This document shows positions 32,814 to 64,000 of a stretch of DNA of 64,000 nt, one piece after another. Position numbers and translations under genes: made by a program. Position 1 is the stretch's first letter, and every line of letters starts with the position of its first letter. The stretch is taken from positions 160,001 to 224,000 of the forward strand of contig CAVSIV010000004.1 in NCBI GenBank assembly GCA_963728205.1. The letters are read 5' to 3'. The notes under the pieces were generated by a model. That model was not told the origin of the DNA, did not search any database, and saw nothing but the letters and a program-made list of their open reading frames with translations. This DNA comes from an uncultured Chloroflexia bacterium. GTDB lineage: Bacteria > Chloroflexota > Dehalococcoidia > UBA2979.

Positions 32814-32990
32814 CCGCGGGCGAATGGCCCGCGTGAGCGGGCTGGTCGGAACCGGTCCGACTGCGCGCTGGCCACGAGCGGGCGGCCGAGCGTCGTTCCC
32901 TCCGCGGCCCGTTCGGGTGCGTGAGCGCAACCGTGGCCGGGAAGCGCGCCGGGGCGGCCTGCGCGGCTGCTCAGCCCGCTCACGCGGGGC
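32814..32990. repeat. REP family 3 (CCCGCGTGAGCGGGCTG arms, inverted pair)
   Basis: 32828-32844 vs 32970-32990; 21-bp exact reverse-complement match to 57164-57184. Confidence 0.65.
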
Positions 32991-33057
32991 GTGCGCGCGG
33001 CATTGCGCGGCGGGGCGCAGGTTGGCGCGCGGGCGTCGAGGCCGAGCTGTGCCCACG

Positions 33058-34107
33058 ATGACGCCGCGTGAGCCGAGCGACGCCGACACCGAACCCCGAC
33101 GGGTTCCTCGCTTCGATCCCCCGCTCGACTTCGAGCCCGCGCCCGTCGTCACCGACGAGGGCACCTTCGGGCACCTGCCGGAGCCGGTGCCCGACATCGA
33201 ACTGGACGAGCCCGGATACCTGCGCGCGACGCTCGCGCGCGTTGCCGCGTGGCTGCTCGTCGTGGCCGCGGCCGCGTGCCTGCTTCGTGCTCGGCGGGTG
33301 GCAGGCCACGGGGCGCGACGTCGCGATCCCCGCGCTGGAGCGCGGGGTGGCCGCGCTCACGCAGATCGACGAGCTGCTCGCGATGCACCACGGCGACATC
33401 GTCGCCGCCGGCGCGAGCCGCGCCGCGCAGCCGGCGGCGCAGGTGGAGGTGCCGGGCTTCCCCGTGCCGAGCGTGAAGCTGAGCGCGCTCGAGGCGCGCG
33501 ACGACTCGGCCGCGCGCCAGCGCGACCTGCTGCTGGGCGCGCCGCCGACGCGATCTACGCGCAACGGGACGGGCGCGCTGCGGACGACGCAGGGCGAGCT
33601 GCTGCGACCCGGCATCTTCTCGACGGCCGGCGCCACGCGCCGCCTGTTCGGCGCGCTGAGCTCCGCCAACCACGACCGCTTCGGCGCACTGCTCTGGCCG
33701 CTCGCGATCGCGTGCGGCGTGCTGGCCGCGGCCGTCGTGGCGCTGGGGCGCGGGCTCGGGACGGTTCGTCGCGCTCGGCGCCGCGCTGGTCGGCGCCGCG
33801 GCGCTCACGCTCGTGGTCACGCTGCTCGTGCGCGGGCTCGTGGCAGTCGTGGGCACCGACGGCAGCACGCTCGCCGGCGAGATCTCCGCGATCACGCGCG
33901 CGCTGGTGTGGACGCCGGTGCGCGACGCCGCGTGGTTCGCGCTCGCCGGGGTCGGCGATCGCGCTGCCGGCGATGCTCGCGGGGCTCGCTTTCGCCGCGG
34001 CGGCGGCGCCACCGCGCCCGACGAGCCGCGGGGCGGCGCCGGCAGCGCGACGTGGCCGCCGCGCTGAGCGCGCGCGGCGCGCACCTCGTCTCGCGTTGAC
34101 GGGATAG
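33058..34107 (+). pseudogene. Multi-pass membrane protein with several apparent frameshifts
   Basis: Coherent hydrophobic segments distributed over three frames (ORFs 32824, 33068, 33813); 3' end uncertain. Confidence 0.55.
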
Positions 34108-34212
34108 TAGAGAAGCAGCACCGAAACCCGACTCGCGAGACGACCGCGGGCGCCGGCGGCGTCCACTGGCCTTTGGTCGCGGCCGCGTACCTGGGGTAGC
34201 TTCAGCGGTGGG

Positions 34213-35001
34213 ATGGGAGTCTGCGCCACAGCATGCTACGAGACGGCAGAGACGTTGGTGATCCGGGCGCGGCCGCTCCCGATGTGGCGCTCGACCGCCA
34301 TCAGCAAGCAGCTCGCCGCCTCGATGGGCGGCGTGAGCGGGCTCGACGCCATCAGCAAGCAGTTCGCCGCGTCGATGGGCGGCGTGGTCGGGCGCGACGC
34401 CATCAGCAAGCAGTTCGCCGCGTCGGTGGGCAGCTTGACCGGGCTCGACGCCATCAACAGGCAGTTCGCCCCGGACTTCCAGACTCTGGACGCCGGCGCG
34501 TCGTTCCGCGCGCTCCTCGCCCAGAACGCCGCCGCCTACGCGGTGCGCTCCTCGTCAGTAGTCGGTCTCATCCGCGACAGCTCGACGGACGAGCACTTGA
34601 TGCGAGTCGTCCGCGGGGTCTCCTCTACCGCGGAAGCGGATCGCCGCCTCGCAGCTGCGATCCGCGCGGCCGCGCTGGGGGAGCCTCCCCCGGCGATTCC
34701 AGACGAACTGGCCGAAGCCGCCCGCGTGACAGTGTCATCGGGGCGCGTGCGTCGCGATCTGGAAGAGATTCGGGACGCACTCGATCCGGCCACGGACCCA
34801 CGCGCATCGCGAGAAGCCCTTGTACTTTCCCGTGGTGTGCAGAGGCAGCACCTCAAGCTTCTGGCAGCTCGCCTTCTCCAGGAGTTGTCCCGCGGGCTAT
34901 CCGTGCTCCCTGATTGCGATGCGCGCATGGAGACCGCTGTTTGGCTGACTTTGGTCGGCACGCTGGTCACCTGCTACTTGACGTTTCTCGCAACCCGGTA
35001 A
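34213..35001 (+). CDS. Hypothetical protein with 17-aa tandem repeats and C-terminal TM (element cargo)
   Basis: 51-bp repeats at 34297/34348/34399/34450 (AISKQFAASMGG..GLD); start uncertain. Confidence 0.6.
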   Translation: MGVCATACYETAETLVIRARPLPMWRSTAISKQLAASMGGVSGLDAISKQFAASMGGVVGRDAISKQFAASVGSLTGLDAINRQFAPDFQTLDAGASFRALLAQNAAAYAVRSSSVVGLIRDSSTDEHLMRVVRGVSSTAEADRRLAAAIRAAALGEPPPAIPDELAEAARVTVSSGRVRRDLEEIRDALDPATDPRASREALVLSRGVQRQHLKLLAARLLQELSRGLSVLPDCDARMETAVWLTLVGTLVTCYLTFLATR

Positions 35002-35102
35002 GCGGGTGCTCGCCGTTCGCCCATGGTCTGTGGGTTTATGGTGCGAATGACGACGGCCACCTGCCCGACCGGCGGGGCGAAGGGGGTCGCTGGAGCCAAA
35101 CC

Positions 35103-36593
35103 ATGAGCATCACCGCCTGGGCAATCGTTCTCGTGGCGCTCGCCTTCATCTTCCCGCGGCTCCACTGCTGGGGCCTCGCGAACTTGTGTCGGCGTAGGCG
35201 TAAGCGCTTTCCTGCCTTTGCTTTCCTGTTTGTCTGCATATTGGTCGCTGCCTGTTCGGCTGCTTCGAGCCATTCCCGAACGCCAATTCCATCCTCGAGC
35301 ATTTCAGCGACAAGTACGCCCAGAATGGGTCCGCAGGCTCAGGCGCCCACACCAGCGACCGATGAGCACGCGGTGCTGCCGGAATTTGGAGTCTTCGAAT
35401 TGCGGCTCGACCGCGACCAGAGCGAGAGCGTCTCATTCCCTCTCGTCACTATCCCAAGCACCGGATGTGCGCTCGGGGGAGTGCGGTTCGACTGGAGCGT
35501 CCGCCAGCCGTATGCCGAAGGGACCGGACCGAGCGTCGAATTCTTCGACGAGTATCAGGGTGCCCACCTCTCGCTCGGCGCCGGAAGTAGCGGCGAAAGT
35601 GAGGCTGGGTTCTGCGATCCCGTCAGCGTGTCCAATCGGAGCGACACGTCGATCCTCGTCGAGGTTCGCTACGTTGCGGTGATGCCGGGCCCCGCGGAGC
35701 CGGTGGGTGCGCCGTCGGCGGCTCAAAGTCCGACCGGAACCGCTCCGCCCTCCGCTTGTACGGTGTTTGAGCGGGGTACCGCGGTCTCGGTTACGTTCAT
35801 GGCATCCGACGCCCTCCAGGCCTGTCAATCCTGGATTCAGGCGCGGGGGCAACAGGGAGAGTTCTGGTCGACGGATGGCGAGCCCACCGAGCAGCAATCG
35901 ATGGTGTGCATCTTCCGTTACGAGTCGGGCGCGCACGTACAGGTCGACGACGGCGGCGGGCAGTTCAACGGGCGCACGATCTGCGCTGGATTCGCCGGAA
36001 CTCCCGGATGGGTCGAGGACCTTCCGGCAGAGCAAGCATCCGCGACGGCGGCCGCGAACCAGCGTCGAATCGACGCTGCGCTTCGGACGTTGACTTCGGA
36101 CCTGTCAGACCTCCAGGCCGAATCGCGGGATCTCAGCGATGTATCCATTGCCGCTGACCTGACGACGATGCGCGATGCTATCAAGGGCGTATACCAAGAT
36201 CTCCAAACAACGCTGACCGCCGATACAACGCTGGTATGTGGAGACGCGGGTGTCGTGGAGGGCGATGTTGGCGCGCTGGAAGGGGACCAAGGCGTGCTGG
36301 AGTCGGACGTGTCCGCGTTGAACACGCGCATCGAGTCAGTTCAGCACTTGCTCTCCATCGTCCCTGCCGACATGCGGGAGTTGACGAGCGCGGAAGCCTC
36401 GCTCCCCTCCTACCAGCCGGCAGGCGTCCCGGAGGACGCGCCCATTCAGCAAGCGGTTCAAGATGGCATACACGCCGTCAGTGGCGCGGAAAGCGCGATC
36501 ACGAACGTGCGGGCGCAAGCAGCAGCGTTAGTTCAGCAGGCACAGGCGTACTCTTCGCAGGCCGATGCGGCGTGCAAGCAAGCGACACCGTAG
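35103..36593 (+). CDS. Putative lipoprotein/secreted multidomain protein (element cargo)
   Basis: Basic patch plus hydrophobic stretch ending VAAC; Pro/Ser linkers; Cys-paired domains; C-terminal helical coiled-coil. Confidence 0.7.
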   Translation: MSITAWAIVLVALAFIFPRLHCWGLANLCRRRRKRFPAFAFLFVCILVAACSAASSHSRTPIPSSSISATSTPRMGPQAQAPTPATDEHAVLPEFGVFELRLDRDQSESVSFPLVTIPSTGCALGGVRFDWSVRQPYAEGTGPSVEFFDEYQGAHLSLGAGSSGESEAGFCDPVSVSNRSDTSILVEVRYVAVMPGPAEPVGAPSAAQSPTGTAPPSACTVFERGTAVSVTFMASDALQACQSWIQARGQQGEFWSTDGEPTEQQSMVCIFRYESGAHVQVDDGGGQFNGRTICAGFAGTPGWVEDLPAEQASATAAANQRRIDAALRTLTSDLSDLQAESRDLSDVSIAADLTTMRDAIKGVYQDLQTTLTADTTLVCGDAGVVEGDVGALEGDQGVLESDVSALNTRIESVQHLLSIVPADMRELTSAEASLPSYQPAGVPEDAPIQQAVQDGIHAVSGAESAITNVRAQAAALVQQAQAYSSQADAACKQATP

Positions 36594-36620
36594 GCAACCG
36601 ATTGCAGATGAGAACTAGCG

Positions 36621-36881
36621 CTACTCGACCGGGGCTTGAGCGGGGCGAAGCGGTCCACGATTGAGCGTCGAGTAGTGTGTGGGGGGAAGCTCAACACCCG
36701 CCGCGTCCACCCCGGAAGCCGGTCCCATGCTCACGTCCTGCTCCGACCCGTCCAGGAAGCGGAGCGTCACGCAGATCGAATCGAACGTGATCACCCGATC
36801 GCCGACAAGCAGGTAGCCGTCCCACGAGCCATTCGTAACCGTGGTGCCCGCGGACCGTACTTCAACGCGCTGCTTCGTCAC
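36621..36881 (-). CDS. Small hypothetical protein (element cargo)
   Basis: AAGGAG RBS before GTG; 86 aa of plausible composition. Confidence 0.6.
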   Translation of the reverse strand: MTKQRVEVRSAGTTVTNGSWDGYLLVGDRVITFDSICVTLRFLDGSEQDVSMGPASGVDAAGVELPPTHYSTLNRGPLRPAQAPVE

Positions 36882-36963
36882 GTTGGACTCCTTCTACCCC
36901 ATGGCCTTGTGTAGATTCGGGTGGCGCCCGGGAACAGTCAAGGGACCGGGGCGCGCTGGGCTT

Positions 36964-37287
36964 TTACCGGCACCCGACCGAGAGGACCGCGCCGACCCTC
37001 GTCGCGTCGAAGCACTCCACGGTCACGAGCGTCTCGTGCTCCGCCCCGGCGATGATGATGGTGACGTACGTGCCTTGCTTCTTCCCGGCACCGCTGTCGG
37101 TGACGGTTACGGCGGAGCCACGCCCGGTGCGATCCGGCACCACCCATGGGCCCGTGCCGTACTTGGTCTTGGCGACCACGGTGTAGTCCGCGAGTGCCGT
37201 CGGCACCGGCGTTGGCGTCGGGTGCGAGCCGCACGCGCTGAGGATGAGCGCGAGAGCAACAGCGAGTGCGAGCGGTGCGGATTGCAT
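36964..37287 (-). CDS. Small lipoprotein (element cargo)
   Basis: MQSAPLALAVALALILSAC lipobox, PTPTP linker, C-terminal Cys pair. Confidence 0.7.
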   Translation of the reverse strand: MQSAPLALAVALALILSACGSHPTPTPVPTALADYTVVAKTKYGTGPWVVPDRTGRGSAVTVTDSGAGKKQGTYVTIIIAGAEHETLVTVECFDATRVGAVLSVGCR

Positions 37288-37461
37288 ATTGGACCAGCGT
37301 ATCCGAAGACAGGCCGCCCCCACGACCCCCGTCAGGCCGCCAGCCGCCAGCGGGCGGCGTGCCTGCGTTGCAGCGAAGAGGAGCGCGACGCCGAACTCGT
37401 CAGCCCTCACGGTAGCGATTCGGGTTTCGGTGCTGCTTCTCTACTATCCCCCCGTCTCGCG

Positions 37462-37490
37462 TTGACGCTGTGAGATGCCCGGCTTAGCGT
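37462..37490 (+). promoter_or_regulatory. Sigma70-like promoter (TTGACG-17-TAGCGT) upstream of mcl
   Basis: Read directly; the -35 overlaps the right TSD. Confidence 0.5.
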
Positions 37491-37592: not shown

Positions 37593-38671
37593 ATGCAGCG
37601 CAGCCCGCGGGAGTTCTTCAAGCCCCTCGCGCTCGGCGCGCCCGAGCCCCTGCGCGATATCCCGTTCACGCCCAGCCGCATGATCCACTTCCTCAACGCG
37701 GCCAACCCGAAGCATGGTCGCGAAGGTCCCCGAGATGCTGCAAGCAGGTCGACGTCCTGCTCGGCAACCTCGAGGACGCCGTCCCCGCCGACCAGAAGGT
37801 CGCCGCGCGCGAGGGCTTCATCGAGGTCGTCGCAGGCAACGACTTCGGCCAGACGTCGGCTGCTGGACGCGCGTGAACAGCCTCGACTCGCCGTGGTTCC
37901 TCGACGACGTCATGCGCTTCGTCGAGACCATCGGCGACCGGCTCGACGTGATCGTCGATCCCGAAGGTGCTCGGCCCCGAGGACATCCACTACGTCGACC
38001 GCCTGCTCGCGCAGCTCGAGGCGCGGCGCCAGCGTCACAGCGTCCGATCCTGCTGCACGCGCATCCTCGAGACCGGCGGCGGCGTGGCGCGCGTCGAGGA
38101 GATCGCGCTCGCCAGCCCGCGCATGCAGGGGATGTCCTTCGGCCCGGCCGACCTCGCCGCCTCGCGGCGCATGAAGACGACGCGCGTCGGCGGCGGTCAC
38201 CCGTCGTACGTGGTGCGCACGGACCCCGACCCCGAGCACCCGGACGCGCCGCGCCAGACGGCGCAGCAGGACCCGTGGCACTACTCGATCGCGCGCATGG
38301 TCGACGCCTGCGTGAACGCCGACATCCTCCCGTACTACGGCCCGTTCGGCGACATCTCGGACCCGGTCGGGTGCGAGGACCAGTTCCGCGCCGCGTTCCT
38401 GCTCGGGTGCGTGGGCGCGTGGTCGCTGCACCCGAGCCAGATCGAGATCGCGCGCCGCGTGTTCAGCCCGGACCCCGACGAGGTGAAGTTCGCGAAGAAG
38501 ATCATCGACTCCATGCCGGAGGGCGGCGGGGTCGCGATGATCGACGGCAAGATGCAGGACGACGCGACGTACAAGCAGGCCATGGTGATGTGGAGCCTCG
38601 CCGAGCGCATCGCCGAGCGGGACCCGGACATGGCCGCGCAGTACGGCATCAGCACGGGAGCCCGCGCCTAG
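37593..38671 (+). CDS. mcl: Malyl-CoA/beta-methylmalyl-CoA/citramalyl-CoA lyase (Chloroflexus-type), several apparent frameshifts
   Basis: [69 protein letters not shown] match recalled Chloroflexus Mcl. Confidence 0.85.
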
Positions 38672-63180: not shown

Positions 63181-63182
63181 CC

Positions 63183-64000
63183 TGACGACGCTCATCTGAA
63201 GTTCCCCAGACCTGCTCACTGAAATTCCCCACCTCCCAGGCGGTGTGGTCCCTGCAGGGGCTGCTCTCGATGCTGACGCTGCGGCGGCGGCAGCGAGGAG
63301 CCGAGGACCGTGCTGCGATGGGAGGAAGACGTGGAAGCACACGCGCTGCGCCGACGGGGTTGGACGATCGCGGCGATCGCTCGACACCTCGGGCGCGACC
63401 GCAAGACCGTGCGGGCCTACCTGCGCGGAGACCGCGAGCCGGGGAAGCGGCAGCGCGCGGGGACGGACGAGTTCGAGCCGTTCGTCGCGTACGTCGGTGA
63501 GCGCCTGCGCGAGGACCCGCACCTGTGGGCGAGCGTGCTCTACGACGAGGTCGTCGCGCTCGGCTATCCGCGCTCGTACCCGTCGTTCACGCGCTCGCTG
63601 CGCGATCGCAGACTGCGCCCGCCGTGCCTCGCCTGCGCCGGCGTGAAGGGTCGAGTGACGGTCGAGATCGCCCACCCGCCCGGGGACGAGATGCAGTGGG
63701 ACTGGCTCGATCTCGGCGAGGCGCCGTGGGGCGGCAAGGCGATCCTGCTGGTCGCGGCGCTCTCGGCATCGGGCCGGGTGCGCGCGGTCTTCGCCGATGG
63801 GCAGGACCAGGCGCACGTCGTCGAGGGCATCGACGCCGTGCTGCGCCGCTTCGGCGGAACCGCGCGGCGCTGGCGCTTCGATCGCATGACCGGCGTCGTC
63901 GACACGCGCACCGGCAAGGTGCTCGCGAGCTTCGCCGCGGTCGCGAAGTACTACGGTGTCGGCATCGACGTCTGCCCGCCGCGAGCCGGCAACCGCAAGG
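63183..64000 (+). mobile_element. IS21-family insertion sequence, left end
   Basis: Starts TG; repeated CTGAA(G/A)TTCCCCA subterminal motifs; istA follows. Confidence 0.85.
63310..64000 (+). CDS. istA: IS21 transposase IstA (runs off window)
   Basis: EEDVEAHALRRRGWTIAAIARHLGRDRKTVRAYL HTH; PGDEMQWDW; RFDRM. Confidence 0.88.
   Translation, partial: MLRWEEDVEAHALRRRGWTIAAIARHLGRDRKTVRAYLRGDREPGKRQRAGTDEFEPFVAYVGERLREDPHLWASVLYDEVVALGYPRSYPSFTRSLRDRRLRPPCLACAGVKGRVTVEIAHPPGDEMQWDWLDLGEAPWGGKAILLVAALSASGRVRAVFADGQDQAHVVEGIDAVLRRFGGTARRWRFDRMTGVVDTRTGKVLASFAAVAKYYGVGIDVCPPRAGNRK

Follow-up and report, generated by a model that had tools for sequence, protein, structure and literature searches.

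The stretch of DNA analyzed here, referred to as the window, comprises 64,000 nucleotides of the genome of an uncultured Chloroflexia bacterium from soil (positions 160001-224000 of contig C4 in a 4.13-Mb assembly of six contigs with 72.5% GC, G000), and it contains a 3,350-bp segment (34101-37450) bordered on both sides by inverted repeats, which in our view is somewhat likely to be a small, non-autonomous relative of the casposons. The terminal inverted repeats (TIRs) extend over 36 nt with one mismatch (97% complementary), their outer 31 nt being perfect, and a perfect 14-bp direct repeat, CGTCTCGCGTTGAC, is present outside both ends as the candidate target-site duplication (TSD). The 31-mer of the ends occurs exactly twice in the window and in none of 100 dinucleotide shuffles. 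Two extra C lie between the right end and its copy of the repeat, and if they are counted the direct repeat can also be read as 16 nt with one mismatch. These TIRs, the 14-bp TSD and the alternative 16-bp parse were all part of the original prediction for this DNA and were found again as described, as were a lower-GC interior and four open reading frames (ORFs) without a recognizable transposase or Cas1. The features are listed in Table 1.

Table 1. Coordinates, in the window, of the element, its ORFs and the adjoining promoter-like sequence.
Feature	Position	Strand	Description
Left target-site duplication copy	34087..34100	+	TTGAC (last 5 bases) adjoins the element end
Left terminal inverted repeat	34101..34136	+	Begins GGGATAGTAGAGAAGCAGCACCGAAACCCGA; CGAAAC block in register with the ends of Cas1 + PolB elements
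ORF1	34213..35001	+	262 aa; three 17-aa tandem repeats, hydrophobic C-terminal segment; no known family
ORF2	35103..36593	+	496 aa from ATG 35103; alternative in-frame starts TTG 35184, ATG 35325
ORF3	36621..36881	-	86 aa; no known family; codon-position GC 0.68/0.51/0.77
ORF4	36964..37287	-	107 aa from ATG 37287 (148 aa from 37410); N-terminal signal, LSAC lipobox
Right terminal inverted repeat	37415..37450	-	Pairs with the left arm
Two extra C	37451..37452	+	Between right end and duplication copy, within a six-C run
Right target-site duplication copy	37453..37466	+	Contains TTGAC (37462-37466), the -35 box in the promoter of the downstream gene
-10-like hexamer TAGCGT	37485..37490	+	18 nt after TTGAC; conserved in five relatives

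The segment is an insertion. When 7.5 kb around the site was compared with 40 relatives, the interior was matched in none of them and the flanks in many, and a genome of the same genus (G001) has the empty site that the original prediction had proposed to look for, in which the left and right flanks adjoin at a single copy of the target, CGTCGAGCGTTGAC (identical at 12 of 14 positions), after which come the same promoter-like sequence and the same gene. The interior is also foreign in composition, with a GC content of 0.61-0.70 compared to 0.70-0.80 in the flanks, and with a third-codon-position GC of 0.72-0.86 in the four element ORFs compared to 0.97-0.99 in two neighboring host genes.

The insertion hit a promoter. 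In five relatives the sequence GTTGAC, a spacer of approximately 17-18 nt and TAGCGT lie upstream of a gene for an HpcH/citrate-lyase-like protein, so that the duplicated 14-mer has the -35 box of this promoter at its end. With the right-hand copy of the duplication the promoter stays intact. Both flanking genes, the HpcH/citrate-lyase-like gene (37593-38671) and an upstream gene for a membrane protein (32824-34100), are broken in frame. The former has about six frame changes within 370 bp (~37700-38070) and is thereafter ~90% identical to its G001 ortholog, while the latter has at least two, and ORF1 itself differs by one frameshift between two assemblies. The breaks are probably consensus indel errors near a variable insertion rather than signs of gene decay. 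Given this pattern of errors, the two extra C at the right junction are themselves uncertain; they may stem from a homopolymer error, have been added without a template, or belong to a 16-bp duplication that contains one mismatch. Two other kinds of repeated element are present in the genome, an IS21-like element at C4:223182-225470 (63182-64000 in the window, the end of which it reaches) and C1:847260-849549, and an IS110-like element at C4:135243-136713 and C6:590802-592273; these names come from reading the ORF translations, without a family search.

None of the four ORFs in the element matches a Pfam family at E ≤ 0.01. The repeats of ORF1 are three 51-nt tandem units (34296-34473) that are 88-93% identical and encode DAISKQFAASxGG near the start of the protein, and in a search of 5.8 billion proteins its sole other match was to the same element on a 3,387-bp contig. 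The N-terminus of ORF2 consists of RRRRKR, a hydrophobic stretch and a lipobox-like VAAC, and is followed by two unnamed domains and a coiled-coil-like C-terminal part. It has 188 distant relatives at E ≤ 1e-3, the most similar being 44% identical, and in the 20 that were scanned of the 152 relatives listed, its modules are fused to DnaJ/DUF2628, a zinc ribbon or signal peptidase S26; two 50-aa members of its cluster proved to be unrelated sequences. The exact sequence of ORF3 was found on two contigs in the collection. ORF4 is a putative lipoprotein because of its N-terminal signal with a lipobox, and no ortholog was found in 98 other genomes of the order, five of which gave weak partial matches. 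These lipobox and hydrophobic-segment features, read by eye, suggest that the cargo consists of envelope proteins.

Neither the element nor its ends occur a second time in the host genome. The 31-mer of the ends, with up to three mismatches allowed, is absent from 400 other genomes of the class and from three congeners, exact halves of the end were not found in genome contigs or in the metagenome contigs scanned, and a plasmid search gave chance-level matches for the end and none for the element. An identical copy does exist in a second assembly, where it is alone on the 3,387-bp contig, and one soil run (0.05 of sampled words) contained two 151-nt pieces identical to the element interior, with the junctions lying outside them. 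These copies bear on the proposal that foreign DNA was misjoined into the contig during assembly, to which the frame breaks in both flanking genes and a bin contamination of 5.6% lend some weight. A misjoin would not, however, yield perfect inverted ends and a duplicated 14-mer from a host promoter, nor would it be expected to recur identically in a second assembly and in soil reads, and we regard such an artefact as very improbable. Enzymes that could have moved the element were also sought in the host genome. The whole genome has no Pfam match to Cas_Cas1, tblastn with two Cas1 and two family B DNA polymerase (PolB) queries from the casposon clade described below found no match in it, element included, and a PolB profile (A3), run without a positive control, found none either.

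A Cas1-encoding element with similar ends is present in a sister species. In a family-wide scan of 60 other genomes, eight had a Cas1, and the scores of two of these proteins, from G429 and from G003 of the same genus as the host, were much lower than those of the remaining full-length matches. The G003 protein (534 aa, Pfam 5.5e-42) is encoded by a lone cas1 gene on a 5.1-kb contig on which neither cas2 nor a CRISPR or other repeat array was found, and the third-position GC of the gene is 0.77 compared to 0.90 in the neighboring host gene. Plasmids gave no match to this Cas1 at 1e-10, viral contigs contained no relative of its type, and the neighboring ORFs have no homologs in other Cas1 loci. 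At 323 bp beyond the end of the cas1 gene the contig reads ...GGCTTGAC followed directly by GGGATAGGAGACAGG..., so that TTGAC is joined to GGGATAG(G/T)AGA as at the left junction in the window. The second end was located through the empty site in the host genome of the window (C6:1429238, a lexA promoter): contig C259 of G003 reads ...GTCTCCTATCCC, then GCGTACGGCTTGAC, then the lexA promoter. The two ends (C159:2070, L019, and C259:970, L112) match at 43 of 50 positions and begin GGGATAGGAGA (GGGATAGGAGAC) beside TTGAC, and the element is flanked by a perfect 14-bp repeat, GCGTACGGCTTGAC, that ends in TTGAC. The insertion point of this element coincides exactly with the -35 box of a lexA promoter (the identification of LexA comes from the ortholog in the host genome of the window), and the -10 box is followed by an SOS-box-like sequence, GAACAGAACATATG. 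Part of the end region looked tRNA-like by eye; ARAGORN and Rfam found nothing there.

The G003 enzyme belongs to a larger group of Cas1 proteins that often share a locus with a polymerase. A full-length homolog, 39% identical, occurs in G129, a genome of the same class, next to a 1,232-aa protein with a weak match to DNA_pol_B_2; no element ends were found on this 14.2-kb contig. The same contig also encodes a Mom-family protein (L022 7221-7943, Pfam 2.4e-44) and a serine/threonine kinase next to Cas1. A metagenome scan with a two-protein Cas1 alignment found 244 relatives, and of the 80 loci that were kept, 44 encode a homolog of the large protein; among the loci of 10 kb or more it is encoded by 36 of 40. 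One of 83 loci (L084) has a CRISPR-like array, a spaced repeat near a casposase homolog. An alignment of three of the large proteins (46-52% identity) has the consensus blocks DTET, NLPFDL, SMYPT, KVLANSxSYG and CDTDS, which we take to be the motifs for exonuclease and polymerase activity in family B polymerases. Sub-threshold Pfam matches to DNA_pol_B_2 were obtained for two of the three, and a search of solved structures with the PolB profile gave no match. The Cas1 profile matches the Cas1 of A. fulgidus (4N06, 1.9e-29) and the casposase, or casposon Cas1 integrase, of M. mazei (6OPM, 1.8e-25), and the G003 and G129 proteins both have a C-terminal CxxC...CxxC followed by a conserved C-terminal block. 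Two contigs of this clade each have two cas1 genes.

The ends of these elements were sought in 82 loci (785 kb) with a 15-nt motif seeded from the window (12 specified bases, at most one mismatch), which gave 20 hits in 14 loci; three without a partner and without TTGAC (L051 -8396, L093 -12021 and L093 -9007) were dropped. The same motif is found in the 4.13-Mb host genome at the two ends of the element and nowhere else. With the second G003 end included there are 18 validated ends, the consensus of which is GGGATAGGAGATAGGcCCCccCGAAAc, and the window end matches validated ends at 10 of 11 terminal bases. Over 31 nt it matches the best three ends at 22 positions, while 20,000 random 31-mers from the host genome reach at most 19. 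Because the first 15 bases had served to find the ends, bases 16-31 were tested alone, and here the mean identity is 6.9/16 compared to 4.45 for random sequences (P = 0.005), with a best value of 10/16 (P = 0.03). Among 99 genomes of the order, the sequence TTGACGGGATAGNAGA was found in two, G000 and G003, and the reversed control gave no occurrence at all. On this evidence the window ends are linked to those of the clade by family resemblance. In a sample of 401 genomes from the phylum, two contained a 27-nt version of the end written in IUPAC code, G000 and, as a lone copy (GGGATAGGAGATAGGCTATGCCGAAAC, G686:C1:1471693, L108), a distant genome; within 35 kb around this copy there is no inverted partner, Cas1 or PolB, and it may be a solo end.

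The length and the target of the duplication are shared as well. Three complete elements are flanked by perfect 14-bp repeats (L039 77-14613, the L029/L031 contig from 7049 to 21645, and L053 3407-14795), in L023, L029 and L039 a spacer of exactly 14 bp lies between tandem copies, and L024 and L025 each show one end of a single insertion, both with an identical 14-mer, so that all complete or tandem cases have a 14-bp duplication. The tandem copies are head-to-tail pairs that share one copy of the target (L023 3680/3695, L029 7034/7049, L039 14613/14628). One end of the 14-mer is TTGAC at 8 of 10 distinct sites, including those in the window and in G003 (L053 and L064 are without it), and at all four sites with host flank (window, G003, L025, L039) the sequence TAnnnT follows exactly 18 nt past TTGAC, compared to a genome-wide baseline for TAnnnT at this offset of 33 of 2013 TTGAC sites (1.6%). 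Hence the clade appears to insert at the -35 box of sigma-70-type promoters. SOS-box-like sequences are present at two of the four checkable targets, one of which is the lexA promoter; the flank of the L039 element has the palindrome GAACACATGTTC.

Taken together, these data favor the interpretation that the window element is a non-autonomous derivative of a clade of bacterial casposons with GGGATAG ends, and we consider this to be somewhat more probable than improbable. An autonomous casposon is defined by Cas1, PolB, TIRs and a TSD, the last having a median length of 15 bp (PMC4046053, in the part of that account used here). The window element has TIRs and a TSD and neither Cas1 nor PolB, and it is therefore not an autonomous casposon by definition. 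Based on sequence comparison, it has in common with the clade ends that can be aligned, the same duplication length and the same target. Casposases are reported to make 14-15-bp duplications and, in vitro, to integrate any DNA that has the ends (PMC6977970 and PMC5137440, as cited in part), and it is inferred that such an enzyme did the joining, acting in trans on the small element. The original prediction, which took characterized casposon TIRs to begin GGG(G)ATA and reasoned from the 14-bp duplication and the GGGATAG ends, had put forward just this idea of a non-autonomous element mobilized by a Cas1 casposase, which now gains support through the family resemblance of the ends; its expectation of a casposon-type TSD agrees with the 14-bp duplications at TTGAC made by motif-sharing elements, and its question of what is encoded by elements with such TIRs has the answer Cas1 and PolB and no DDE transposase, although the match is by motif and not by the exact TIR.

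Several observations weigh against this interpretation. The host genome, which is 89% complete, has no Cas1 or PolB, and since the end sequence of the window was found nowhere else, no cognate autonomous partner is known. The G003 assembly yielded no PolB, in a search run without a positive control. The resemblance of the ends was found in part with a motif seeded from the window, with the unseeded half being only moderately significant. The four ORFs have no homolog in the 82 casposon loci, with which tblastx of the element gave only noise, and the extra CC at the right junction differs from the clean junctions of the relatives, which have no additional bases. Finally, the element is known as a single copy at one site, so that its movement as a mini-element is presumed.

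That last point leads to a different history, in which a full casposon integrated itself at this site and later lost Cas1 and PolB by deletion or replacement, the remnant never having been mobile as a small element. In such a case the segment would be tied to casposons just as well by its ends, duplication and target, the one copy at one known site is what it would leave behind, and degenerate casposons and solo ends have been reported in Methanosarcina and Methanococcoides (PMC4779613, in the sections cited). No trace of Cas1 or PolB is detected inside the element by tblastn, however, and its four ORFs are intact, tightly packed and unrelated to the genes of the casposon loci. In addition, with ends identical over 31 nt and a perfect duplication, the deletion of the core would have to be very recent. 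Integration as a small element is favored over decay because of the pristine ends and duplication, the intact and unrelated ORFs and the stand-alone 3,387-bp contig, and in-place decay seems to us rather unlikely.

Families of mobile DNA that do not use Cas1 were also considered. A derivative of the Tn3 family, whose members have GGGG ends and make 5-bp duplications, was rejected: the duplication here is 14 bp, the five bases flanking the two ends differ (TTGAC and CCCGT), and the ends start GGGA; a presumed resemblance to Tn3-like ends (a GGG start and CGAAA near position 22) was set aside on the duplication length. A mobile insertion cassette would account for inverted ends around cargo genes with no transposase, if it was moved by a conventional DDE transposase whose staggered cut is exceptionally long and if its likeness to casposon ends is coincidental, and DDE families with long duplications do exist, such as the IS1202 group with 16-28 bp (PMC10132070, in the part cited). 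However, IS1202-type ends are TGT...ACA and those here are GGG...CCC, the 14-bp duplication is outside the range of that group, which was rejected as the source, no DDE transposase with these ends was found in any locus examined, and the IS110-like and IS21-like copies in the host genome have unrelated ends. Moreover, this family of ends, the 14-bp length and the TTGAC target occur together with Cas1 and PolB, and a DDE-mobilized cassette is judged improbable.

The arrangement of repeat, arm, cargo, arm and repeat would also formally fit the attL and attR of an island inserted by a tyrosine or serine recombinase, with the 14-16-bp repeat as the att core and the inverted ends as recombinase-binding arms. 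The core sites of such recombinases are shorter than the 36-nt near-perfect arms seen here, no recombinase was found in or beside the element by Pfam or in the ORF list, and the related elements encode Cas1, with no such recombinase in the ORFs scanned. In addition, the repeat varies in sequence from site to site while its length is constant at 14 bp, as would be expected of a target duplication rather than of a fixed att core. The probability of a recombinase island is accordingly very low.

If the element is a non-autonomous casposon derivative, it would keep only what integration needs, namely two inverted ends of the GGGATAG type, each with a 3' C, and the Cas1 integrase and family B polymerase would have been replaced or lost, four small cargo genes being carried instead. 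A casposase from an autonomous relative would then join the 3' ends of the element to the target, one on each strand with an offset of 14 bp, where TTGAC forms the -35 box of a sigma-70-type promoter, and repair of the gaps would generate the 14-bp duplication. An autonomous relative of the window element is seen in the sister species; the source of the casposase itself may have been a partner that is unassembled, lost or transient. A broader and more tentative proposal, on which we would put less than even confidence, is that the casposases of this soil clade read TTGAC-N18-TAnnnT as a 'leader', integrate at the -35 box, and mobilize natural mini-casposons that carry cargo and nothing else.

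The CRISPR adaptation machinery is proposed to descend from casposons, yet those known are few and mostly archaeal, with a life cycle that is poorly understood. Searches of the open-access literature, supplementary tables aside, found no description of natural non-autonomous casposons or of targeting of promoters or of lexA by casposons. If the interpretation is correct, the window element would be a natural case in which casposon ends alone suffice to bring unrelated genes into a chromosome, which in the literature found, as far as its cited parts go, is otherwise confined to laboratory mini-casposons. There would also be a sizeable clade of bacterial soil casposons (the 244 metagenomic Cas1 relatives) with defined ends and a 14-bp target, and it would follow a simple rule, insertion at a promoter -35 box with the promoter kept intact. 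The promoter-as-leader proposal, if true, would provide a natural counterpart to the way in which Cas1, guided by a leader, integrates short DNA, and an intermediate between casposons that replicate themselves and a Cas1 that works on foreign DNA, while the SOS-box and lexA targets might link insertion or expression to the DNA-damage response.

In its organization the window element is comparable to mobile insertion cassettes and miniature inverted-repeat transposable elements (MITEs), which have no transposase, retain the ends typical of an autonomous family and rely on the enzyme of that family. The enzymes in those cases are DDE transposases with short duplications, whereas the enzyme family implied here is Cas1. 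The archaeal casposons (Methanosarcina mazei, Aciduliprofundum boonei, family 2), in the descriptions available, have inverted ends of ~31-37 bp with a transferred 3'-terminal C, as here, and share with the clade a 14-15-bp duplication, a short motif at one end, recognition of an adjacent 'leader' and tandem arrays. They encode Cas1 and PolB and target the ends of tRNA genes, while the window element has neither enzyme, a bacterial host and a promoter -35 box (TTGAC) as target. Bacterial hosts and intergenic insertion, as here, are described for the family 3 casposons such as AceAut-C1 (Krupovic et al., 2014; PMC4046053), the Cas1 of which has C-terminal zinc-binding and HTH regions according to the portion of that paper cited, a layout that the G003 and G129 proteins share when compared by description only. 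The solo-TIRs of M. mazei are, in the sections cited, Cas1-less casposon remnants with a single end, and end sequences are stated there to be casposon-specific (PMC4779613), while the window element has both ends, a duplication and cargo. The closest parallel in design is provided by the artificial mini-casposons, in which a kanamycin-resistance gene was placed between A. boonei ends and a casposase provided in trans carried out the integration, giving a duplication of 14-15 bp (Beguin et al., 2016; PMC5137440, as partly cited). The window element likewise has its cargo between two ends, and differs from them in being natural, 3.35 kb in size and furnished with four ORFs.

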